Notes: generated by a model not told the origin, from the letters alone. A stretch of 64,000 bases of DNA from Pseudomonadota bacterium (GCA_043825855.1 JBDRRJ010000009.1:17866-81865), one strand, 5' to 3'. Counted from the stretch's first letter, positions 10,472 to 56,049 are shown. Numbers and translations are program-made.

Positions 10472-12736
10472 TTATGAATAAGTCCCATATTTCCTCACCA
10501 TCTCCCAATACTCTCTCTGCCCTTCAGTCATTCTATTTTCATAATCGAGTTTAAAAGCCTGGTCAGATTCGTTTAGCTCACCGCCTGCGATTTCGTAGTC
10601 CACACAGAATGTGTATCTGGTCAGATCGTTCAGGAAGTATGTTGGTCTAACAGGCAGGGGTTTTATTCTGATGTTGTTTTTGCTTTTTTCTGCCTGAGCC
10701 TCCAGCTCTGCCATCTCTGCCTTCAGCTCTTCATCGGTCCATTCTCTGTTCAGCTCATACTGTTCGTCTGCCCTTTTCTTTTTATCCCTGCCTATAAGTG
10801 CGGCTGCTTTTTCTACAGATGATATTTTGGAGTGCTGTATAAAGTCTGGAATATTTGATGTGAGCTGTCTGTATTCTGCGATGCATTCCTTCCGGCGGCG
10901 GGCTTTCTCTTCAATCTTTTTCTCTGCTATGCCCTTGTTTTTCATGCTTGAGTATTCCACTAACTCTGCCTGGCAGAGATATTCACCCTTCGTGAATACA
11001 AGCAGCCATTCGGGATCCATCGGGTCATACCTGATCTCAACCTTTTCGCCTTTTTCAAGGTTGATGGGTATTAGAGCATCGTGCTCATACAGCTCGTTCC
11101 TGAATGTTATCCTGCCCCTGTCCACGCTCCTGGCATCCCTGGCAAGGAATATGAGGTCGGTGGTATCATTGTTTAGATATGTCGGCTGCCAGCCGTCCTG
11201 ACAGCACATCTTCAGGCAGTCCATAGGGGTTATTTCTCTGGGTTTTGGTCTCCATACCCATTCTTTTCTCACTCCCCTGTGGGCTTTAGTTTTGTTGTAG
11301 AAGTCCATTGCTTTATAAAGAATTACCCTGAACTCGCTGAAGGTGAGAAGTTTTCCGGCTTTTGCAAGTTTTTCGATCTCCTTCTGATCGACTTCCTGTT
11401 CTTCCTGGGATGCCGTCAGACGTTTCACGTATCCGGGAACCATGAACGTATTTCTTAATAACTGTTCAAATATGCTGAACGTCCCCTCGATCATTTTGGC
11501 TTTAGCATTTCGGACGATAGCCTTTCTGTGCATTCCGGGGATAATCACGCATGGATTGATCTCTTCAGGGTCTATGTCAACAGAACAGGCAGGGATATCT
11601 ATAACATTCTCGGCACTCATATGCAGTGATCGGATGTCTTTCATTATGCTCTGGATGTATTTTGATTCTTCCGGTTTGCCGTGGTCTGTGTAGATGGATC
11701 CAAATGCCCCGAATATCTTTACCCCGATACGCAGTGCCAGACCCATTAGCTGGCTGTCATACTTTCTGTCGACTGCGCCGCCATAGAAACACCGTGTCCT
11801 GAGATCCTGCCAGAAATATCCCTCTGGTCTGAATACCTCTCCGGTGTCGTCATCCACCACCCAGAAATCAAACCTATGCTGATCCCCGACGAGGATCTCA
11901 AACGGAGCGAGGTCGGAATAATTTCTGAGAACAGGTGGCAGGGTGTTGTCCAGGGCCCTGACTCCACCTCTTTGCAGGGCAAGAAGCTGAGGGGTGACCC
12001 TCTTCTTGAGCCACCAGAGTGCGCTCTCGTATCCGCCTATATCCCAGCCCCTCTTAGTTGCCTCTTCCTGCAGGATGGCATAAAGTTTCTTTTTGCCGTC
12101 TTTGGCGAGTTTTCTGTGTTCCTTCTTTAAACATAGTCCAACCCACCAGTCTATAGCCTCCGGAGTCCACGTCTTTGCCTGCTTGGGCTTGCTGTGTTTC
12201 AGCCCGGCAAGTCCGCCTTTTTCGTATTTCTGTATTTTTCTATATATAGTAGATATAGTGGTGTCGTGTTTTAGAGCTACAGCCTCGATCCACTCTCTCT
12301 TTTTCCATCCTCTGGGTACGTTGAGTGCTTCCTGAACTATCCGGCTCGATTTCTGCACTCCTTCGTCATGCAGTATATTTATATTTATAGCTGTGTTGCC
12401 TGACCATGCATCTGATCCGCCTGTGGAGGCTGATGACATCGACATGTCAGGGAGATATTTATTTGCAACCTCAATGGCTGCCTCCGGGGCAAGGGATGAT
12501 ATGAGAAGAGGGGATACGTCGTGTTCGGTGACGTATCTTTTTTGTGCATCAGGGGAAAGACATGAGAGGGCTATTTTGGTGATTACACCATTTTTACCCC
12601 CTCCATTCGGTGCAGGTACCTGTGATACTTTTTTGTAATAACCAGAGTTAATCCTTCTCTGAATTGTCTTTTCTGAGCAATTTTCGATGTCCACCACCTG
12701 TTTTTGAGTTAAATAGATGTCATCCATACGCAACAC
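10472..12736 (-). CDS. MuA-like DDE transposase (N-terminal DNA-binding domains, rve core, Mu transposase C-terminal)
   Basis: 754 aa sitting between Ner and B. It has HTH-like N-terminal domains and a DDE integrase-like core (…VGDQHRFDFWVVDD…). Confidence 0.85.
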   Translation of the reverse strand: MLRMDDIYLTQKQVVDIENCSEKTIQRRINSGYYKKVSQVPAPNGGGKNGVITKIALSCLSPDAQKRYVTEHDVSPLLISSLAPEAAIEVANKYLPDMSMSSASTGGSDAWSGNTAININILHDEGVQKSSRIVQEALNVPRGWKKREWIEAVALKHDTTISTIYRKIQKYEKGGLAGLKHSKPKQAKTWTPEAIDWWVGLCLKKEHRKLAKDGKKKLYAILQEEATKRGWDIGGYESALWWLKKRVTPQLLALQRGGVRALDNTLPPVLRNYSDLAPFEILVGDQHRFDFWVVDDDTGEVFRPEGYFWQDLRTRCFYGGAVDRKYDSQLMGLALRIGVKIFGAFGSIYTDHGKPEESKYIQSIMKDIRSLHMSAENVIDIPACSVDIDPEEINPCVIIPGMHRKAIVRNAKAKMIEGTFSIFEQLLRNTFMVPGYVKRLTASQEEQEVDQKEIEKLAKAGKLLTFSEFRVILYKAMDFYNKTKAHRGVRKEWVWRPKPREITPMDCLKMCCQDGWQPTYLNNDTTDLIFLARDARSVDRGRITFRNELYEHDALIPINLEKGEKVEIRYDPMDPEWLLVFTKGEYLCQAELVEYSSMKNKGIAEKKIEEKARRRKECIAEYRQLTSNIPDFIQHSKISSVEKAAALIGRDKKKRADEQYELNREWTDEELKAEMAELEAQAEKSKNNIRIKPLPVRPTYFLNDLTRYTFCVDYEIAGGELNESDQAFKLDYENRMTEGQREYWEMVRKYGTYS

Positions 12737-43894: not shown

Positions 43895-44410
43895 ATATTA
43901 CCTGATAATTCCAAAGTTTTTTCATGATTCTCACCCTTGTGCAATATATAAACAAATATAACAAAATCGTATATAATTCAATGAAAAACTGTCTGAAGAG
44001 TTTTGGTGAACAACTCTCATTTAGCCGTAGTCATTGTTTTAATAGGGTCTAATCTTAAACGTTCGGTTATCTTGAAAAGTATGGCGACGGTTTATACCCT
44101 TATGTACGTATTATAAGGAAAACATTAACGGTTATTCCAGGATAAAAGGACAAAAAACAGACTTTAATTAAGTATGACCAAGCTATTATTGAGCAATAAA
44201 AAAATGTATTTTGGATAAAAAATTATGTATAATAAACAAACTGTAAATTGAAAAACAATAACTTAGCAAAATATTTAAACTTTCTTTCTCTCGTGAGCGT
44301 TTTTCTAATTTTTTTCAGATGTAAAGTAACTCTTCTATTTCTTCAGATGTCTAAATAAACAAGTTATCAAAAATTGAAGTTTAAATATGATGGAGAAAGG
44401 AGATAACAAA

Positions 44411-45025
44411 ATGAAAAAGTTACTTTTAGGGACAATCCTTTTAACGTTGGTCATTGTTGCTCCTGCCCGTACAATGGCTGAGATAGATGTAAGAGTTGGG
44501 ATTTCTTTACCGCCTCTCATCTTATTTGGGTCAGCTCCGGATGTGGTAGTGCTGCCAGAGACGGACAATGTATATGTTGTGCCCAGCATAGGTGTAGACC
44601 TGTTTTTCTGGAGTGGCTGGTGGTGGCGTCCATGGGAAGGTCGCTGGTATCGCTCACGTTATTATGACAGGGGATGGGCTTATTATGACAGAGTACCGGT
44701 ATTCTATTTTGATGTAGAACCGGGTTGGAGAAATCACTACAGAGACCATAGTTGGTATAATCACCGCTGGGAACATAAACGGATTCCTAATCAAGAACTT
44801 CAACGGAACTGGAAAAACTGGCAAAAAAACCGTTATTGGGAAAGGCAGAGAACCTGGGACATCCAAAAGTATAGACCTCAACCGCAACAACGGAGACAGG
44901 AACTGAGAAATCAAAGGCAACAGCAATATCAGCAGAGATCTGAGGTTCGTCAGGAAAGACAGAGACGGGAACGAAGAGAACAAAGGCCTGATGTTCAGCG
45001 ACAATACCAGGATCGACAAAGATAA
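44411..45025 (+). CDS. Secreted Trp/Arg/Tyr-rich protein with a short Gln/Arg-rich tail; paralogue of 45893..47032. Start trimmed to MKKLLLG, which has an RBS (aaaggaga).
   Basis: Signal peptide, then a conserved core: …VYVVPSIGVDLFFWSGWWWRPWEGRWYRSRYYDRGWAYYDRVPVFYFDVEPGWRNHYRDHSWYNHRW…. Confidence 0.6.
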   Translation: MKKLLLGTILLTLVIVAPARTMAEIDVRVGISLPPLILFGSAPDVVVLPETDNVYVVPSIGVDLFFWSGWWWRPWEGRWYRSRYYDRGWAYYDRVPVFYFDVEPGWRNHYRDHSWYNHRWEHKRIPNQELQRNWKNWQKNRYWERQRTWDIQKYRPQPQQRRQELRNQRQQQYQQRSEVRQERQRRERREQRPDVQRQYQDRQR

Positions 45026-45154: not shown

Positions 45155-45778
45155 TTACTTGTTTTGGATGTTGGCTATCCGGTCATTCCATGATGGATGG
45201 CTATCCCAAAATCCGCCACCCTCGGCAGAGTCTTTTTGGAGAGTTTTAAGGATTTGAATTTGTCTCTCAATGGAAATACCAAAGTGAGTAACAAGGACAT
45301 CGGAAGCCAGCTGATCGGCTTCCCGCTCCTGGGGTTTGCTGTAATTACTGGTAACTGCAGGATTGACAGCGTAATTTAACAAACCTGCGCCGGGAACAAA
45401 AATATCAACGATCATCATAACTCCTGTGGTAGCTATACTTACAGCCTGTTTTTTCTGGACATGGTTCAGTTTTATATGAGCCATTTCATGAACAATGACG
45501 AAGGTTAGGGTATCGTCATCATACCTGAAAAGACCTTCAGAAAGATTCACGTTATTATTTGCGTCAACAAAAGCATTAGGAGCTTTACCACCGTAAAAAT
45601 ACAGTTTGCATTCCTCTGTGATTTCCATGTCGTGGAGTGCTTTATTAAATATCTCCACACTTGGACGATCTTTAATATATTGAGGGACTATGTAAGGTTG
45701 ACGCGGGGAAGCGCAACCGATGAAAAGGGTAATGATTATAAGTGTTAATCCTATTCGTTTCATGTTATTATTATACAC
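45155..45778 (-). CDS. M48-family zinc metallopeptidase lipoprotein
   Basis: Lipobox LFIGCASP and HEMAHIKLNH (HExxH…H). Confidence 0.7.
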   Translation of the reverse strand: MYNNNMKRIGLTLIIITLFIGCASPRQPYIVPQYIKDRPSVEIFNKALHDMEITEECKLYFYGGKAPNAFVDANNNVNLSEGLFRYDDDTLTFVIVHEMAHIKLNHVQKKQAVSIATTGVMMIVDIFVPGAGLLNYAVNPAVTSNYSKPQEREADQLASDVLVTHFGISIERQIQILKTLQKDSAEGGGFWDSHPSWNDRIANIQNK

Positions 45779-45892
45779 TCTATTCAGGTTTTACAAAAGT
45801 TTTTAGTTTAAAACCTCTTTTTCGCAAAAGCATTTTTCTGGGATTTTTTTATAAATAAAAGTTTAAAAGTTATGGAGAAAGGAAATAACAAA

Positions 45893-47032
45893 ATGAAAAG
45901 GTTATTTTTGGGGACAATCCTTTTATCATTGGTAATTATCGTTGCTGCCTGTGTAGTGCCTGGAGCGAGTTTAAGAGTTGCAGTTCCTTTGCCGCCGTAC
46001 ATTGCATTCAGGTCAGCTCCGGATGTTATAGTGTTGCCAGATACGGATGATGTGTACGTTGTGCCCGATATCGATATAGACCTGTTTTTCTGGGGTGGCT
46101 GGTGGTGGCGTCCATGGGACGGTCGCTGGTATCGCTCACTTTATTATGACCGGGGATGGGCTTACTATGCCAGAGTTCCGATCTTCTATTTTGACATCGA
46201 TCCGGGTTGGAGAAGTCATTACAGAAACCATAGTTGGTTTAATTACCGCTGGGACTATAAACGGATCCCTCAACGGGAACTTCAACAGAACTGGAAAACC
46301 TGGCAGAAAAATCGATATTGGGAAAAGCAGAGAACCTGGGACATACAAAAGTATGAACCCCGACCGCTACAACAAAGACAGGAACTGAGAAATCAAAGGC
46401 AACAGCAATATCAGCAGAGACCTGAGATTCAGCAAGAAAGACAGAGATTGGAACTAAGAGATCAAAAGCAGGAGCAATATCAACAAAGGCCTGAAGTTCA
46501 GCAAGAACAACAGAGGCAGGAGCTGAGAAATCAAAAGGAAGAAGAGCAACGCAGAATTGAGATTCAGCAAGAAAGACAGCGACAGGAGCTACGAGAGCGA
46601 AAGGAAGAAGATCAACGAAGACTAGAGATGCAGCAAGAACAACAGAGACCCGAGGTTGGGCAAGAACGACAAAGGGAGGAATTAAAAGATCAAAGGCAAG
46701 AACAGTATCAACAAAGACCTGATGTTCAACAGGAACGGCAGAGGCAGGAACTAAAAGATCAAAAGCAGAAGCAATATCAACAGAGGCCTGAGGTTCAGCA
46801 ACAAGAAAAGAAACAGGAGTTACTTAAACAAAGAGAAGAAGAAAAACGAAGAATTGAGATGCAGCAGGAACGACAGAAGCAGGAGCTACGTAAGCAAAGG
46901 GAAGAAGTTAAACAGAAACCTGAAGTTAGGCAAAAACTAGAGAAAGAGAAAGTAAAAGATAAAGATCAAGAGCAACAGGAAGAGGAAGATCTACAGAAGC
47001 CAGAGCTTAAGCGAAATTTGCGGCAGAGATAA
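45893..47032 (+). CDS. Secreted Trp/Arg/Tyr-rich protein with a long Gln/Arg/Glu-rich tandem-repeat tail; paralogue of 44411..45025
   Basis: Same signal peptide plus W-rich core (…DIDLFFWGGWWWRPWDGRWYRSLYYDRGWAYYARVPIFYFDIDPGW…), followed by about nine 25-26-aa repeats of the form QQRPEVQQE.QRQELRNQKEE. Confidence 0.6.
   Translation: MKRLFLGTILLSLVIIVAACVVPGASLRVAVPLPPYIAFRSAPDVIVLPDTDDVYVVPDIDIDLFFWGGWWWRPWDGRWYRSLYYDRGWAYYARVPIFYFDIDPGWRSHYRNHSWFNYRWDYKRIPQRELQQNWKTWQKNRYWEKQRTWDIQKYEPRPLQQRQELRNQRQQQYQQRPEIQQERQRLELRDQKQEQYQQRPEVQQEQQRQELRNQKEEEQRRIEIQQERQRQELRERKEEDQRRLEMQQEQQRPEVGQERQREELKDQRQEQYQQRPDVQQERQRQELKDQKQKQYQQRPEVQQQEKKQELLKQREEEKRRIEMQQERQKQELRKQREEVKQKPEVRQKLEKEKVKDKDQEQQEEEDLQKPELKRNLRQR
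46380..46960 (+). repeat. In-frame tandem repeats of about 75-78 bp that encode the Gln/Arg/Glu-rich tail
   Basis: Units such as caacagcaatatcagcagagacctgagattcagcaagaaagacagagattggaactaagagatcaaaag recur with variation. Confidence 0.5.
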
Positions 47033-47402: not shown

Positions 47403-48305
47403 ATGAAAAATTCAGATAATAAAATAACAGTTTACGGTTCATCGCAAATACAAAAGAAAATATTCACAATACGTAACGAACAAGTTATCGTAGATCGTGA
47501 TCTAGCAGAATTGTATCAAGTCCCTACTAAACGTCTTAATGAGCAAGTGAAAAGAAATATAGAGAGATTCCCCGATACTTTTAGATTTCAGCTTGATGAT
47601 AACGAAAAAATTGAACTGGTCGCAAATTGCGACCGGTTCGAAAATCTTAAACATTCTTCCGTAAATCCATACGTTTTTACAGAGCAAGGCGTGGCTATGC
47701 TTTCAGCAGTATTGAAAAGCGAAATCGCAGTAGCAGTAAGCATACAAATTATAAATGCTTTTGTTGCTATGCGGAAATTCCTTGTTACAAACGCCGGGGT
47801 TTTTCAGCGGTTAGATAAATTAGAAATTAAGCAAATTGAAACAGATCAAAAATTTGAAAAAGTATTTAATGCGTTACAAAAAAAAGACTATGAACCTAAA
47901 CAAGGGATCTTTTTCGACGGACAAATTTTTGATGCTTACAAGTTTGTCTCATCTCTTATTCGCAAAGCTGAAAAAACCATTCTGTTAATTGATAACTATA
48001 TCGATGAAACTGTCCTGGATTTGTTTACCAAGAAGAAAAAGGATGTTTCTGTAACAATATTAACAGCTAATCTTAACAAATCTCTAACACTTGATGGAAA
48101 GAAATTCAACAAACAGTATCCGCGTATAACCATAAAAGAATTTAACAAAGCACACGATAGATTTTTGATTGTTGATGACAGCGTTGTTTACCACTTTGGC
48201 GCTTCATTGAAGGATTTGGGTAATAAGTGGTTTGCTTTTTCAAAGATGGATAAATCCGTACTTGAATTATTAGAAAACCTTAAAAAGGTTGATGCTGATG
48301 ATTGA
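47403..48305 (+). CDS. ORF6N (KilA-N superfamily) domain protein with an uncharacterised C-terminal domain
   Basis: …VYGSSQIQKKIFTIRNEQVIVDRDLAELYQVPTKRLNEQVKRNIERFPDTFRFQL…NPYVFTEQGVAMLSAVLKS. Confidence 0.6.
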   Translation: MKNSDNKITVYGSSQIQKKIFTIRNEQVIVDRDLAELYQVPTKRLNEQVKRNIERFPDTFRFQLDDNEKIELVANCDRFENLKHSSVNPYVFTEQGVAMLSAVLKSEIAVAVSIQIINAFVAMRKFLVTNAGVFQRLDKLEIKQIETDQKFEKVFNALQKKDYEPKQGIFFDGQIFDAYKFVSSLIRKAEKTILLIDNYIDETVLDLFTKKKKDVSVTILTANLNKSLTLDGKKFNKQYPRITIKEFNKAHDRFLIVDDSVVYHFGASLKDLGNKWFAFSKMDKSVLELLENLKKVDADD

Positions 48306-49295: not shown

Positions 49296-50006
49296 ATGAA
49301 CACTGAAAAACTATATGCGCGCCTTGTCCAGATTTGGGAGAGTACTTTCGAGGACGACTACGATACCCTGGTGCCTCTCGTTCCTGTGCCACCGAAGGCA
49401 CATTGTCTCCTTTTTGTTGGTTTGAATCCCTCCTTCAATCCCAGTGCTATTCGCAGATTGCTACCCGCGGAAAAGCGAATCGAACCTAGCACTTACTTCC
49501 ATTGGAGGAACAGACGAACATTCGACCCACAGGTTGACGTCTGCTTGCACGAACATGCTAAGAAAGAATATGTGTATTTCTCGCGCTTTCACAAGCTTTC
49601 GTCCATAGTCGGAGTCGACTGGGACCATATTGATATCTGCTTTTATCGTGAGACCTCTCAAGCCAAAACGCGAAGTAGAATAATCGAGAAGGAATCGACT
49701 CACAAACTAACGGACTTTGGAGAAAAGCAATTCAATCTGTCTATGCAGCTGATTGCGGAGGCAGAACCAAGATGCATCATCGTGGCCAACGCTCTTGCAA
49801 GTAACATCTACAGAATTAAGAACAGACTGAAGTTCTCGCCATCGCGCGGATGTTACCCACAGGTGATCTGCGGTAGGGAGTTGCCAGTTTTCCTTTCGTC
49901 CATGCTCACAGGCCAGAGAGCTTTGGACAACTACTCATTTGAGCGTCTCGCTTGGCACGTTTGTCGTGAGCTGGGCATACCAATGAATTATAGCGGAACC
50001 ACATAA
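49296..50006 (+). CDS. Possible UDG-superfamily (Mug/TDG-like) DNA glycosylase-fold protein
   Basis: CLLFVGLNPSFNPS resembles the Mug motif VVFCGINPGLSSA. Later segments (CIIVANALASNIY…, …VICGRELPVFLSS…) parallel the Mug β4/β5 region. Weak call. Confidence 0.3.
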   Translation: MNTEKLYARLVQIWESTFEDDYDTLVPLVPVPPKAHCLLFVGLNPSFNPSAIRRLLPAEKRIEPSTYFHWRNRRTFDPQVDVCLHEHAKKEYVYFSRFHKLSSIVGVDWDHIDICFYRETSQAKTRSRIIEKESTHKLTDFGEKQFNLSMQLIAEAEPRCIIVANALASNIYRIKNRLKFSPSRGCYPQVICGRELPVFLSSMLTGQRALDNYSFERLAWHVCRELGIPMNYSGTT

Positions 50007-50261
50007 CCATTCATTCCAGACCAACACTGGGGACTAGCGTTGATTGGATAGTCAAGGACACCCCAGCCCAGCACACTTTTTGAGAAATTTCGCCTCTTGG
50101 GTACAGCTTTACAAAAGGAGTTCAAAAAAGAAAAAACACTGGATTTTACCTGCTATTTGAGGTATAAGTAAGTGGATGGTTAATTAAACAGTGATGATTT
50201 TGTAAACCCTAAACACAGAGGGGTAATTATGAGGGCGTCTTTCTTTAGTTTCTGAGATTGC

Positions 50262-50300
50262 AGAGAGCAAAGAGGAAGGGCGCTTTTTTGTTTATGGCTG
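50262..50300. repeat. Repeat family R1, partial copy 2
   Basis: agagagcaaagaggaagggcgcttttttgtttatggctg. Confidence 0.5.
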
Positions 50301-50312
50301 GGCTATTCGTTT

Positions 50313-50552
50313 ATGAAGACCAAAACAAAATACACTGATGAACCTATTGGTGAGCTAAGAGTTGTTAAGGATTTTCTCCCCTCACCAGACCAGTTGGTAT
50401 TGAAAGAAGACAACGTCAAGGTTACAATCTCGCTTAAAAAATCGAGCATTGATTTTTTCAAAGAACAGGCAAAGGAACACAGAACATCCTATCAGAAAAT
50501 GATAAGGGAGGTTGTCGACTGGTACGCCTCAAATTATCGAAAGAACCCATAA
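50313..50552 (+). CDS. BrnA-like (COG3514/DUF4415) antitoxin-family protein, apparently orphan because no BrnT/DUF497 partner lies upstream
   Basis: …YTDEPIGELRVVKDFLPSPDQL…KVTISLKKSSIDFFKEQAKEHRTSYQKMIREVVDWYASNY. Confidence 0.5.
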   Translation: MKTKTKYTDEPIGELRVVKDFLPSPDQLVLKEDNVKVTISLKKSSIDFFKEQAKEHRTSYQKMIREVVDWYASNYRKNP

Positions 50553-50681
50553 CATCAGCTTGGATAAGAGTGCTCATTCCGTTGCACTCTATTCGTACCT
50601 GTCAAGCTCCGGAAGATTTTATGTACCAATTGACCAAAGACGAGTTCGAAAACTCGAAATCGCAAATTGCGATATCAAGCT

Positions 50682-50803
50682 CTGACTGGGATGGCAGACG
50701 AAAGCCATAGGTTTTATACTTGCAGAGAAAAAGAAATAATAATTTAGGGGAGCAAAGAGGGGGGCTTTTTTGGTTTAAGCCTGGTTTGTTCGGTTAAAGA
50801 ATA
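50682..50803. repeat. Repeat family R1, copy 3
   Basis: ctgactgggatggcagacgaaagccataggttttatacttgcagagaaaaagaaataataatttaggggagcaaagaggggggcttttttggtttaagcctggtttgttcggttaaag. Confidence 0.65.
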
Positions 50804-51146
50804 AAAATAGACATATCGCTGCATACTTTGATCTTGGTTAGGAAGAAATCAATGCCATAAACCAATTACTACAAGTAGAAAAGTAAGGAATTAACAAAAT
50901 AGATTCAAACATCACAGGCTTCAACCTTTGGATAAATTCAGGCGAAAGTTAAGGGCAGGGAGTTTTTCGCTGTCGCATTCATTTAATACCCGACAAATCA
51001 GCTGATGTTGATTAGCCAAGAGGTGGAGCGAGAAATTTATGTCCTGTAAAGTAAATTACTAATCAATCCAATAATTCGCTACATAGGACATTGGCGCTAT
51101 TTTGCCTCTTTATGTGAGGTTAACCTTTAGATGTTAAGGGAAAATA

Positions 51147-52352
51147 ATGAAAGCAGAACTAATCTTAAAATTGTTTGACGCTTTTAATATCCAAAGATGG
51201 AATGACCAGGTTAGACCCACAGATTTGGTTGAAATCGATAAGCATGGGCACAAAATGGCAATCGCTTATTGTCTTGCTATGTGTGAAAGTGAAATTAATG
51301 GGGCTAAAATTAGTTGGGAAGATATAATTAAAGGAGGTGTTTATGAATTACTTCGTCGTACAGCACTCTCAGATATAAAATCTCCGGTTTATAGACTTAT
51401 CAAGAACGAATTTCCTGATGCATACAGAGAAATGAACTCTTGGGCATGGAGTGAATTGGAATTATGCCTTGAAGATGGAGAAATGAAAACGGAAATTGAG
51501 TCATATTTGGTGAATGGTCACACTCTTGAAAATACTGCTTGCAGGATTTTAGATGCAGCACATGTTTTTGCAAGCTATTGGGAATGGCAAATCATTCGAA
51601 ACCTAAACCCAGCTTCTCCCTATATTGTTATATTGGATGAAAGGGTAAATAACGACCTCGAAGAGCATATGGATTTAGTGGGAATAAAGAAATTGGTATC
51701 TAGACAAAAGCTACTTCGCTTTATTGACATTGTTGGTAGATTACGATTTCAGGTTCGTTGGGGGCAAACATTAAGGCTTCCCAAGACTTCTGTGTTGGGG
51801 CACAGTATGTTTGTTGCATGTCTAACCTATTTTTTGACAAGGCAATTTAATGCATGTGAAGAACGAATAAAAAACAATTTTTTCGGGGGCCTATTTCATG
51901 ATCTCCCTGAGTCAGTAACAAGAGACATTATTTCGCCAGTAAGAAAAGGAGTAAAGGGATTGGAGGGTGTTATAAAAAAAATCGAAACCAGTTTAATGGA
52001 GAAAGAAGTCTTTCAATATTTAGATACCGCATGTAAAGACGAAATGTCTTATTATACAACTGACGAATATTGCTGCAAGATTAAAATTGACAGCGCAGTG
52101 TCCAAAAAATCTATTGATGAAATTAACAGAGAATACAACCAAAACAAATATCACCCTATAGATGGAGAACTTATTGAGGTTGCAGACAAGCTATCTGCTT
52201 ACGTAGAAGCTAGGCTTGCATTAAAAAATGGCTTCCAATCCGAACACCTTAAACATGGTGAAGAGTCCTTAAGTAGTCAATATAATGAATTTCGCATTGC
52301 CGGGATAGATGTTGGTGCCCTTTTTAAAAAAGTAAATGACCTAACAAAATAG
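51147..52352 (+). CDS. Tandem HD-domain protein: an N-terminal degenerate (pseudo) HD domain plus a C-terminal intact YfbR-like HD phosphohydrolase (5-prime-deoxynucleotidase-type) domain
   Basis: C-terminal half: RW…LGHSMFVA…GGLFHDLPESVTRDIISPV…ELIEVADKLSAYVEA (H, HD, E, D, D all present). The N-terminal half aligns to it (RW…HGHKMAIA…GGVYELLRRTALSDIKSPV), but HD has been replaced by YE. Confidence 0.65.
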   Translation: MKAELILKLFDAFNIQRWNDQVRPTDLVEIDKHGHKMAIAYCLAMCESEINGAKISWEDIIKGGVYELLRRTALSDIKSPVYRLIKNEFPDAYREMNSWAWSELELCLEDGEMKTEIESYLVNGHTLENTACRILDAAHVFASYWEWQIIRNLNPASPYIVILDERVNNDLEEHMDLVGIKKLVSRQKLLRFIDIVGRLRFQVRWGQTLRLPKTSVLGHSMFVACLTYFLTRQFNACEERIKNNFFGGLFHDLPESVTRDIISPVRKGVKGLEGVIKKIETSLMEKEVFQYLDTACKDEMSYYTTDEYCCKIKIDSAVSKKSIDEINREYNQNKYHPIDGELIEVADKLSAYVEARLALKNGFQSEHLKHGEESLSSQYNEFRIAGIDVGALFKKVNDLTK

Positions 52353-52488
52353 CACCTTTAATCAAGAAAGAGTCAAGTAAAGATTTTAATGATACTAGAA
52401 TACTTCATTGCATAGAGTCATAAAGTAATCCATCGTTTTGTGAATTTTAGATGTCATCAGAATTATAGACAAAAAGAATAGAGCTAAT

Positions 52489-53616
52489 ATGAAAAACATA
52501 TTCTTCCTTTATATTCCTCCAAACAATAACGAAGCAATAATCCACTACCAAGACACAATTATAAACAAAGTCCCACAAGAGCAAATATTTAGATTAGTTG
52601 ACCAAAATTTAAAAAACTACTTGAGACATGTCTTTCAAGACAAACGAATTGCTGTTTGGGGATCACGAAATACTCCCTCCAACAAATCGAAGTTTGAAAA
52701 AATGGAAGCAGGTGACAATATCCTTATTGTCGAAGGTGAAACAGTAAAACTGTTAGGTTATATCGCTGCAACAACGATCAATCAGGATCTGTCAAGAGAG
52801 CTGTGGAAAAATATAGACGGTAGATATTCAGAAGGATGGGATCTGATTTACTTTATTTCAAACCCCTTAGAGATTGATCTCCCTTTCGCAGAAATAAATA
52901 AACTCTTAGAGTATGAACCAACGTATCGGCTACATGGATTTACAATCGTTGGTAAAGAAAAGCTCAAAGAGTTTTACAAGCAGTATGATGATTTATACTC
53001 AATTCTGCAGCGCATCAAATCGGGTGATCGGGTTATTCGCCGGGATCAGGAAATATTAACCGAAGTTCCTCATGAGGTGCACGAAGACCTAAAATCTTAT
53101 GGTGAATCAGAAATATCACAGCATTTAGAGATGCAGTGGAAATTGATTAATTTGGGGAAAAAGACCGGATCAAAGGTCTGGGTTCCAAAGAATGATCAGA
53201 AAAAAATTGTCGATACATATGGTTATACCGATTTTGAGCAGGAATTTTCTTCTGGGATAGACTTACAAGCAAAGTATGTCGAAAATATCGATGTGATTTG
53301 GAAAGAGGAATTCAGGATAGATGCTGCCTTTGAAATAGAGCACTCAACGGGTATTTATTCAGGGCTACTCAGATTTTCTGATTTAAAGATTGTGGCACCC
53401 AATAGCCAGTATCCATTGTTCATTGTTGCCCCAATTTCACAGCGAAACAGATTAAAAGAGCAGATTAATCGACCAACCTTTAAAAAGATGGATTTTATAC
53501 ATAATGTCAAATATTTGTCATATGAGATTGTTAGTGAGATTGACAAATTTTTTGAAAAATCTAACAGTGGTTTAACTGTAGAACTTCTAATTGGCAAATC
53601 TGAAATCATAACATAA
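52489..53616 (+). CDS. Two-domain protein: N-terminal EVE/PUA-like domain and a C-terminal nuclease-like (candidate PD-(D/E)xK) domain. Putative modification-dependent nuclease.
   Basis: N-terminus: …RIAVWGSRNTPSNKSKFEKMEAGDNILIVEGETVKLLGYIAAT, matching the EVE pattern W-G-v-R-N…M…GD.vl…iG. C-terminus: …IDVIWKEEFRIDAAFEIEHSTG…LFIVAP, with D…ExE on alternating β/α elements. Confidence 0.4.
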   Translation: MKNIFFLYIPPNNNEAIIHYQDTIINKVPQEQIFRLVDQNLKNYLRHVFQDKRIAVWGSRNTPSNKSKFEKMEAGDNILIVEGETVKLLGYIAATTINQDLSRELWKNIDGRYSEGWDLIYFISNPLEIDLPFAEINKLLEYEPTYRLHGFTIVGKEKLKEFYKQYDDLYSILQRIKSGDRVIRRDQEILTEVPHEVHEDLKSYGESEISQHLEMQWKLINLGKKTGSKVWVPKNDQKKIVDTYGYTDFEQEFSSGIDLQAKYVENIDVIWKEEFRIDAAFEIEHSTGIYSGLLRFSDLKIVAPNSQYPLFIVAPISQRNRLKEQINRPTFKKMDFIHNVKYLSYEIVSEIDKFFEKSNSGLTVELLIGKSEIIT

Positions 53617-53836: not shown

Positions 53837-54058
53837 ATGGCGAATCTCTCAGGGCCACAACCAGAAATAAAATACTGTCCAATTTGTAAGTCCAATCTAA
53901 GAAATGTACCAAGAAATGAAATGAAATCCAAAGGCCATGTTAGAAAAGACGGCACGGTGTCCAAGCACACACATACATATGACTGTAGTAGTTGTAGAAA
54001 TCGATTTGTAATAAACCAAAACAGACTAAAAATACAACAAAGTCTATTACTGTTTTGA
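53837..54058 (+). CDS. Small zinc-ribbon protein (CPIC…CSSC)
   Basis: 73 aa with an RBS (aaaaaggggga). KYCPICKSNL…YDCSSCRNRF. Confidence 0.4.
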   Translation: MANLSGPQPEIKYCPICKSNLRNVPRNEMKSKGHVRKDGTVSKHTHTYDCSSCRNRFVINQNRLKIQQSLLLF

Positions 54059-54894: not shown

Positions 54895-56049
54895 ATGGGC
54901 AAGACACTCATAATAGAAAGAATTCAAGACATTAAACTGCCTTCCGATAGATCGGCTTTCCTCTGGGGTCCCAGAAAGACAGGCAAGACTACCCTTTTAA
55001 AACAGAAATTTCCTGATGCCTGTTGGATAGATCTTCTGGATCATGATATTTATTTAGCCCTCAGCCGGAAACCCACCAGCCTGAAACAGATTCTGGAAGC
55101 GCAATCTTCCAGACTTGTTGTCATTGATGAGGTGCAAAAGATCCCAAGTCTCATGGATGAAATCCACTGGCTTATGGAAAACAGAGACTACCAGTTTATA
55201 CTTTCAGGCTCAAGCGCAAGGAAACTGATAAGGTCAACAGTGAATCTCCTTGGCGGCAGGGCATGGCGTTTTGAGCTTTATCCCCTTGTCACTCATGAAC
55301 TCAAGGAAAAATTTCATCTGGAAAAAGCCCTTCTTCACGGACTCCTGCCTTCCCATTACCTATCAACCAACAGTGAAATGGATTTAAAGTCCTATGTCTT
55401 TGATTATCTGAAAGAGGAGATACAGGCAGAGGCCCTTACCCGTAATATACCCGCCTTTTCCAGATTTCTGGATTCTGCCGCAGCTACGAATGGTATGCTG
55501 CTTAACTATTCAAATGCTGCCAGAGAAGCGGGTGTCTCGGTTAAGACCATAAGGGAATATTACCAGATACTCGAAGATACGCTTATAGGATGTCAATTAC
55601 CCTCATGGAAGAAATCAAAAAAGAGGAGATTGATTGAGACATCCAAGTTTTATTTTTTTGATACAGGGATTGTCTCCGCAATTTTACAATACAGGACGCT
55701 TCATCCAGCTACTGATAATTTCGGACGAGCCTTTGAGCATTTCATCTTCCAAGAATGCAGGGCATACAGGCATTACAGCCGTTTGGATTTTCCGATTCAT
55801 TTTTGGAGGACCGCCGGAGGATCGGAAGTAGATCTTATCCTTGGTGATGCTGAAATTGCGATAGAAATTAAATCATCTGAAAATGCGGGTGATAGGACAA
55901 AGGGTATTCATCTGTTCAAAGAGGAATTCAAATGCAAAAATGCCTTCATTGTCTCAAGAGACCCTGTTCCAAGGAAAATAACCTCAGATATAACAGTGTT
56001 GCCATGGAAGACCTTCTGTGAAATGCTCTGGAATGGTGATATTATTTGA
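54895..56049 (+). CDS. AAA+ ATPase of the COG1373 type (ATPase domain plus DUF4143)
   Basis: Walker A GPRKTGKTT, Walker B VVIDEVQ, and a C-terminal DUF4143-like region (…FYFFDTGI…). Confidence 0.75.
   Translation: MGKTLIIERIQDIKLPSDRSAFLWGPRKTGKTTLLKQKFPDACWIDLLDHDIYLALSRKPTSLKQILEAQSSRLVVIDEVQKIPSLMDEIHWLMENRDYQFILSGSSARKLIRSTVNLLGGRAWRFELYPLVTHELKEKFHLEKALLHGLLPSHYLSTNSEMDLKSYVFDYLKEEIQAEALTRNIPAFSRFLDSAAATNGMLLNYSNAAREAGVSVKTIREYYQILEDTLIGCQLPSWKKSKKRRLIETSKFYFFDTGIVSAILQYRTLHPATDNFGRAFEHFIFQECRAYRHYSRLDFPIHFWRTAGGSEVDLILGDAEIAIEIKSSENAGDRTKGIHLFKEEFKCKNAFIVSRDPVPRKITSDITVLPWKTFCEMLWNGDII

Follow-up and report, generated by a model that had tools for sequence, protein, structure and literature searches.

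We analyzed a 64,000-nucleotide stretch of the genome of a Pseudomonadota bacterium (GCA_043825855.1, JBDRRJ010000009.1:17866-81865), here called the window. An original prediction had joined four of its genes, named A to D below, into one modified-DNA-sensing system in which nucleotide hydrolysis by an HD phosphohydrolase was coupled to a nuclease. All four open reading frames (ORFs) were found where they had been placed.

Gene A, 49296-50006, + strand: 236 amino acids, divergent uracil-DNA glycosylase (UDG)-superfamily protein with a GLNPS motif
Gene B, 50313-50552, + strand: 79 amino acids, small ORF resembling an antitoxin, its DUF6364 and BrnA matches below threshold
Gene C, 51147-52352, + strand: 401 amino acids, pseudo-HD domain (residues 1-185) followed by a catalytic YfbR-like HD phosphohydrolase domain (residues 186-401)
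Gene D, 52489-53616, + strand: 375 amino acids, predicted stand-alone modification-dependent (Type IV-like) restriction endonuclease
N-terminal domain of D, residues 1 to ~180, 52489-53028, + strand: PUA-superfamily reader of the YTH/EVE type
C-terminal domain of D, residues ~210 to 375, 53116-53616, + strand: PD-(D/E)XK cleavage domain, a homologue of the C-terminal region in R.NmeDI

C and D are indeed on the same strand, 136 bp apart rather than the 137 bp first given. The region from ~47.4 to 56.0 kb is quite probably a low-GC, compositionally mosaic variable island between core metabolic genes that holds several independently acquired single-gene elements. D would be a Type IV enzyme on its own there, with A, B, and C beside it by chance of insertion and not as components of one system.

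Linkage of genes A to D

Linkage among the four genes was examined from both sides. The D-side scan, with one genome per species, found 584 D relatives, and 80 loci were kept with flanks of up to 10 kb; 32 of these, which all fall in L001-L037, are full-length matches to D by the criterion of the script used. tblastn searches with C, A, B, and the island's other small ORFs as queries matched none of the 80 D-relative loci. On the C side, metagenome contigs supplied 80 HD-family loci (810 kb in total), and none of these contains D, A, or B.

Close relatives of both genes have other neighbors. The D relative P0002 (86% identity) lies beside a Bro-N gene, a methyltransferase fragment, and small ORFs. 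In P0004 (82%), P0008 (77%), and P0015 (71%), D belongs to a cassette in which a tetratricopeptide repeat (TPR) protein is followed by a protein that we call X, by D, and in some cases by a further TPR protein; in P0008 a Type I HsdR gene comes next. P0014 (73%) is adjacent to a Type III-like restriction-modification (R-M) system and an HNH gene. The C relatives P0122 (81%), P0123 (79%), and P0124 (78%) have unrelated neighbors, none of which is an NmeDI_C gene. The C-D pairing is thus repeated in none of the close relatives examined (71 to 86% identity for D, 78 to 81% for C). Because neither set of 80 loci contains the combination and close relatives occupy other contexts, we conclude that a tandem HD protein, a reader-nuclease, and a UDG protein do not form a recurring unit. 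The HD and EVE-nuclease pair, whose co-occurrence the original prediction had named as a check, was not found together in these other loci. A multi-gene modification-sensing defense system as proposed would have been notable, and the linkage test removes it. ORFs beside the closest HD relatives (299 to 304 amino acids upstream and 276 amino acids downstream; L087 and L093) were also examined and set aside, since they are related neither to one another nor to anything in the window.

Domains and conserved residues of D

D had no match in Pfam, NCBIfam, or PDB sequences, the Pfam set having been searched without the NmeDI_C model. Sequence searches of the PDB returned nothing for the single sequence, the family profile, or the N-terminal domain alone, and fold comparison alone succeeded. 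The AlphaFold model of D has two domains (mean pLDDT [predicted local distance difference test] 76.6), with blocks of the N-terminal domain mostly at 73 to 94 and a disordered linker at residues 187 to 209. A structure search confirmed both folds, the reader and the nuclease, in keeping with the EVE/PUA-like and PD-(D/E)XK assignments made at the outset. The nearest fold to the reader is the YTH-like domain of Thermococcus gammatolerans McrB (PDB 6p0g/6p0f), and VcaM4I is among the fold matches. At the sequence level, positions 177 to 323 of the 351-position PADLOC REase_II model PDLC03534 align to residues 211 to 351 of D (E = 2.6e-14). D therefore carries in one chain a PUA-superfamily (EVE/YTH/SRA/ASCH) reader domain and a fused nuclease domain with intact catalytic residues.

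The D family comprises 1545 cluster representatives in the protein database. The best 120 of these are full-length relatives at 57 to 86% identity, all with Pfam PF27126, which is named NmeDI_C in precomputed annotations. They come from Syntrophales, Nitrospirota, Parcubacteria, Omnitrophica, Marinimicrobia, Ignavibacteriales, and other groups. An alignment of 26 homologues has a mean column identity of 71%. The two motifs that had been noticed in the reader, W57-G58-S59-R60-N61 and M72-E73-A74-G75-D76, are present; within them W57-G58-S59, M72, and G75-D76 are invariant across the 26 homologues, as are W106, W117, Y121, and F122. The invariant residues of the C-terminal domain are E250, D268, E282, and E284, which bears out the D...ExE pattern as D268...E282-x-E284. 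The GenBank version of D (P0005, 304 amino acids) begins at M72 and would drop the first 71 residues of the reader domain, but residues 1 to 71 (52489-52701) are conserved in homologues from position 1.

No methyltransferase gene adjoins D in the window, and no DNA methyltransferase is found among the 25 commonest families in the 125 nearest-neighbor ORFs of 36 D-family loci. Genes that do lie next to D relatives include HNH_2, ResIII, HEPN_Swt1+DUF499, UvrD, Type I HsdR, and Type III-like R-M genes. The NmeDI_C domain occurs on 180 of 72,556 plasmids, and no D relatives were found on viral contigs. Since the reader belongs to the modified-base type and methyltransferases do not recur, domain composition and the structural model point to D as a Type IV (modification-dependent) endonuclease that probably acts alone, the only clear restriction element of the island. 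Its family, which is large, spread over many phyla, ~60% identical, and unusually well conserved, is a candidate group of Type IV enzymes.

Some more distant relatives carry the nuclease domain in other combinations. NmeDI_C-like nucleases stand behind a bona fide Pfam EVE domain in the archaea Bathyarchaeia (L059, 9518-10534, 28.1 bits) and Methanothrix (L071, 9485-10579, 30.1 bits), and a Planctomycetia metagenome-assembled genome (L044, 9524-10651) likewise has such a nuclease fused to Pfam EVE. Other relatives of the nuclease domain, 420 to 540 amino acids long, have N-terminal regions without a Pfam match. This suggests that the nuclease domain is a shuffled module.

Relation of D to known restriction enzymes

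Fusions of YTH-like domains to PD-(D/E)XK nucleases have been noted before (PMC7641849), and restriction enzymes that join a PUA reader to a nuclease have been characterized (PMC6765204, PMC7897488), so that the composition of D is of a known kind. Judged from its sequence and its model, the D family would be a new member of that kind. Lutz et al. demonstrated that PUA-reader and nuclease fusions are modification-dependent restriction enzymes, which rarely have methyltransferase neighbors (PMC6765204). D resembles the EVE-HNH enzymes VcaM4I and TspA15I, the SRA-HNH enzyme ScoA3IV, and the MspJI-type enzymes that pair SRA with PD-(D/E)XK in having an N-terminal reader and a C-terminal nuclease in one chain, no cognate methyltransferase, and a place in defense islands. 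It differs from them in that its reader is nearest the YTH domain of T. gammatolerans McrB and has no Pfam EVE or SRA match, and its nuclease is PD-(D/E)XK of the NmeDI_C family and not HNH. McrB (6p0g/6p0f) joins its reader to an AAA+ GTPase motor, which depends on McrC for cleavage, whereas D has its own nuclease and no motor, and no similarity between the two readers is detectable at the sequence level. According to Bell et al., binding of N6-methyladenine (m6A) in DNA by the T. gammatolerans YTH domain has been reported.

R.NmeDI is a 351-amino-acid Type II enzyme of Neisseria meningitidis that makes 12/7-nucleotide cuts to either side of RCCGGY; a methyltransferase gene overlaps the gene encoding it (PMC2095814). 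It has a C-terminal nuclease homologous to that of D (NmeDI_C), and the 351-position PADLOC model matches its length. The N-terminal recognition domain is not common to the two proteins; NmeDI, whose gene overlaps that of a C5-methyltransferase, cleaves at unmodified sites (PMC2095814), whereas D has no such gene and is not predicted to cut such sites. FokI and BspD6I have detachable cleavage domains that the nuclease domain of D also resembles.

By analogy with these enzymes, D would bind duplex DNA through its YTH/EVE-like domain and flip a methylated base, either m6A or 5-methylcytosine/5-hydroxymethylcytosine (5mC/5hmC), into a pocket that the invariant tryptophans may line. Two D molecules would then bring their FokI/BspD6I-like PD-(D/E)XK domains together by dimerization, and D268, E282, E284, and probably E250 would cut at a distance from the mark, like R.NmeDI and the MspJI-type enzymes. 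Cleavage by D would depend on modification, and host DNA would be spared because it is without the mark. The specificity of D for m6A or for 5mC/5hmC could serve as an epigenetic reagent.

Tandem HD architecture of C

Over residues 192 to 371, the C-terminal half of C scores 81.8 bits with Pfam YfbR-like (cut-off 25.9) and 77.1 bits with HD_3. Its best PDB sequence matches are OxsA and YfbR, which cover the C-terminal half only, and no solved structure in the PDB spans the N-terminal half. Whereas E. coli YfbR and OxsA are single-domain HD phosphohydrolases, C is twice as long, with a degenerate N-terminal copy of the domain, and its score with the NCBIfam 5'-deoxynucleotidase equivalog PRK03826 (48.9 bits) is under the cut-off of 122. 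The family has more than 4955 relatives of ~400 amino acids, including Kuenenia and Desulfocurvibacter proteins, and the tandem architecture is a property of this whole large family and not of the locus.

Profile-profile alignment of the two halves by hhalign gave a probability of 90% and an E value of 1.6e-6 over 142 columns. This shows that the internal duplication of a YfbR-type HD domain, recognized in the original prediction, is real, as is the loss of the HD dyad in the N-terminal copy. Conservation was assessed in 26 family sequences with 42 to 81% identity to C. In the C-terminal half R204-W205, H219, H251-D252, E255, D260, and D347 are invariant and, in an alignment with E. coli YfbR (PDB 2paq), fall on its RW, H, HD, E, D, and D positions, so that this copy keeps the catalytic set ascribed to it. 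The invariant residues of the N-terminal half are R17, W18, E29, D31, K32, K36, E67, R70, R71, D76, K78, P80, H139, and E146, and H35 is conserved in more than 90% of the sequences. Corresponding positions in the two halves are H35/H219, E67-L68/H251-D252, D76/D260, and H139/D347. The HD dyad is thus missing from the N-terminal copy as proposed, but the register in which YE replaces it was rejected: E67-L68, and not Y66-E67, is set opposite H251-D252 in the profile alignment, and H139 faces D347.

The degenerate copy (51147-51701) is conserved at least as strongly as the catalytic copy, which argues for a conserved ligand-binding or interface role and not for a decaying duplicate. By analogy with YfbR, deoxynucleotides are the most likely substrates, which the C-terminal half of C would dephosphorylate. 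The N-terminal half, its metal ligands lost, is probably an intramolecular partner with a structural or ligand-binding role and may act as the second subunit of a YfbR-like dimer or as a ligand-binding site. With thousands of members, this ~400-residue pseudo-HD/HD family illustrates cleanly the fusion of a pseudo-enzyme partner.

Housekeeping families recur among the 136 nearest neighbors of HD-family genes, namely LysM/M23 peptidase, glutamate dehydrogenase, PlsY, 4-alpha-glucanotransferase (MalQ), and D-Tyr-tRNA deacylase (Dtd). The Kuenenia gene adjoins purA, uppS, cdsA, phoH, ybeY, and recO. The HD family is found on 1 of 72,556 plasmids, no C relatives were found on viral contigs, and PADLOC gave no meaningful match for C, its sole match being at chance level (E = 0.03). 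The possibility named at the outset, that the HD protein is a housekeeping nucleotidase, therefore fits most, though not all, neighborhoods of the family.

Recurrent neighbors of the D family

In the 125 nearest-neighbor ORFs of the 36 D-family loci, the counts are TPR 10, HNH_2 6, MazG-like 4, ResIII 4, HEPN_Swt1 3, UvrD 3, and DUF499 2; the HD family is not among the 25 commonest. The protein X of the cassette described above has 224 to 268 amino acids and a HECGH (HExxH) motif, with no Pfam or PADLOC match. In the closest D relatives the order is TPR protein (296 amino acids), X, D, TPR protein (L081, 6309-9988; L091, 635-4334; L184, 4308-7125). X directly precedes D in three of the four closest relatives, with a gap of 14 bp in the two that were read, and is left as a fragment in the closest one (L092, 1862-2287). 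In more distant genomes it also occurs as a domain of the 655-amino-acid TPR neighbors in L003, L006, L008, L018, L020, and L035. A remnant of the TPR-X cassette was searched for in the window and not found. X and the TPR proteins may be real partners of the D nuclease family.

MazG-like genes, which encode an all-alpha nucleoside triphosphate pyrophosphohydrolase (Pfam PF12643), were found beside D homologues at these positions:

L002, 9652-10008, and L012, 7749-8201: MazG-like gene overlapping or abutting the D homologue
L003, 11146-11496, and L006, 10187-10537: MazG-like gene 12 to 20 bp after the D homologue; the two loci are 92% identical and count as one event
L035, ~11284-11589: MazG-like gene on the other strand, ~170 bp downstream of the D homologue

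A neighbor of this kind is far above chance for a gene present about once per genome, and it is often on the same strand as D and overlapping it or within 20 bp. The TPR proteins, the HExxH protein, and the MazG-like hydrolase are better partner candidates for the D family than the HD gene is.

Evidence weighed against a stand-alone D

Several observations weigh against reading D as a Type IV enzyme that acts alone among unrelated neighbors. The C-terminal domain of the D model is of moderate confidence (block pLDDT 48 to 89), and the searched literature holds no characterized member of D's particular family. C and its closest relatives (68 to 81% identity) form a sub-branch in variable, nuclease-rich or integrase-bearing contexts. 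C and D share a strand across their short gap, are alike in GC content (36.5% and 35.6%), and have no terminator predicted between them, and they could be co-transcribed, although promoter and terminator scans performed at chance level and are uninformative on a C-D operon. Finally, the MazG-like gene is the immediate neighbor of D in 5 of ~37 full-length loci.

The sub-branch to which C belongs could be a stand-alone defense or mobile-element gene unrelated to D, for example one encoding an enzyme that depletes deoxynucleoside tri- or monophosphates (dNTPs or dNMPs). Its separation as a branch is consistent with this, as are the variable regions in which it lies, with SNase, NucS_C, DUF4145, and ATPase genes, the integrase, PLD, and AAA_15/21 genes beside a relative at 47% identity, and the low-GC island around C itself. 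We consider this unlikely, given the chance-level PADLOC match, the near absence of the family from plasmids and its absence from the viral contigs, and the identity of the catalytic residues of C to those of members in housekeeping contexts.

C and D might instead be a lineage-specific two-gene system in which the HD phosphohydrolase removes modified dNMPs or dNTPs freed from restricted DNA, so that the host avoids the mark, or in which depletion of the nucleotide pool goes hand in hand with cleavage. The arrangement of the two genes fits such a system, and so do the MazG-like pyrophosphohydrolases, functionally analogous to C, that adjoin D homologues in L002, L003, L006, L012, and L035; the MazG-like enzyme DCTPP1 hydrolyzes 5-methyl-dCTP and related nucleotides (PMC4491611, PMC7162842). 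However, no HD homologue lies within 10 kb at the 80 D-relative loci and no D homologue at the 80 HD-family loci, the closest D relatives have the TPR-X cassette upstream and not an HD gene, and the closest HD relatives have unrelated neighbors in a family mainly of housekeeping contexts. A two-gene system is thus improbable. The MazG-like neighbors keep a nucleotide hydrolase alive, at low probability, as a partner of the D nuclease family, but this evidence concerns the MazG-like family and not the HD family. In a broader version, reader-nucleases of the D family would repeatedly recruit a hydrolase that sanitizes the nucleotide pool, a MazG-like one in four or more lineages and, in this bacterium, the tandem HD protein, and the C-D pair would be a non-orthologous replacement of the hydrolase partner. 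We regard this as equally improbable; if it were true, the hydrolase would destroy modified dNTPs or dNMPs from restricted DNA, and the host chromosome would never gain the mark that the nuclease attacks.

That D is a conventional Type II-like enzyme that cuts unmodified DNA, with the host shielded by a methyltransferase encoded elsewhere, is improbable and was rejected: its nuclease domain is homologous to that of Type II R.NmeDI and plasmid homologues are annotated "type II restriction endonuclease," but only the C-terminal cleavage domain (model positions 177 to 323 of 351) is common to NmeDI, the N-terminal domain is a YTH/EVE-type modified-base reader, and no methyltransferase recurs beside family members, whereas nmeDIR overlaps its methyltransferase gene (PMC2095814).

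Genes A and B

A has the UDG alpha/beta fold with a motif-1 loop, it carries a GLNPS motif, and its designation as UDG-like held. No Pfam or NCBIfam model matched it, no PDB sequence match to a UDG was obtained, and motif 2 is not recognizable. Compared with the UDG superfamily (families 2 to 6, UdgX, and SMUG), A thus matches none of the sequence models and lacks a recognizable motif 2. Its family is a small UDG-fold group of 70 cluster representatives without a sequence model. Among the relatives at L097, L098, and L099, one is on a plasmid-like contig with ParA/ParB, RPA replication protein, relaxase, and MazE-like genes, and another is directly upstream of hicAB. We conclude that A is a divergent DNA glycosylase-like protein of the UDG fold with no link to C or D.

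B had been called an orphan BrnA-like gene. Its resemblance to BrnA is weak (BrnA_antitoxin, 17.3 bits against a cut-off of 26.1; DUF6364, 21.9 against 27.3), while the word orphan is apt, as no toxin-like ORF lies beside it in 49950-51200. With a score below threshold and no BrnT toxin gene next to it, B was rejected as the BrnA of a BrnT/BrnA type II toxin-antitoxin pair.

Island setting

D is flanked on either side by a full-length match to a candidate defense family of PADLOC.

ORF6N + PLD-like protein, 47403-48305, + strand: PADLOC candidate defense family PDC-S05 (E = 1.2e-121); Pfam ORF6N (E = 5.6e-31)
AAA_14 + DUF4143 ATPase, 54895-56049, + strand: PADLOC candidate defense family PDC-S01 (E = 5.7e-56); Pfam DUF4143 (E = 1.4e-33) and AAA_14 (E = 4.8e-21)

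Cytochrome-c maturation, CdhD-like, and M48 peptidase genes border the island at one end, and genes of central metabolism at the opposite end. GC content is 47.7% in A and 33.3% in the ORF6N gene, beside the values given above for C and D; A and the ORF preceding it are at 48 to 51%, and two sampled downstream core genes (oxidoreductase and methylmalonyl-CoA mutase) are at 49 to 52%. Because GC content differs among A, C, D, the ORF6N gene, and the downstream core genes, the region, an island of the defense type, is compositionally mosaic. An Rfam search of 47 to 56.5 kb returned nothing, and the window contains no tRNAs.

Just downstream of D, at 53837-54058, lies a 73-amino-acid ORF with two CxxC pairs and weak matches to zinc-ribbon and IS1/IS1595 N-terminal zinc-binding domains; it may be a transposase remnant. 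Two paralogues at 44387-45025 and 45872-47032 each start with a sequence like a signal peptide and have an N-terminal domain rich in W, Y, and R, after which come long repeats rich in Q, E, and R that differ in length; they flank an M48-family peptidase gene at 45155-45778 on the - strand.

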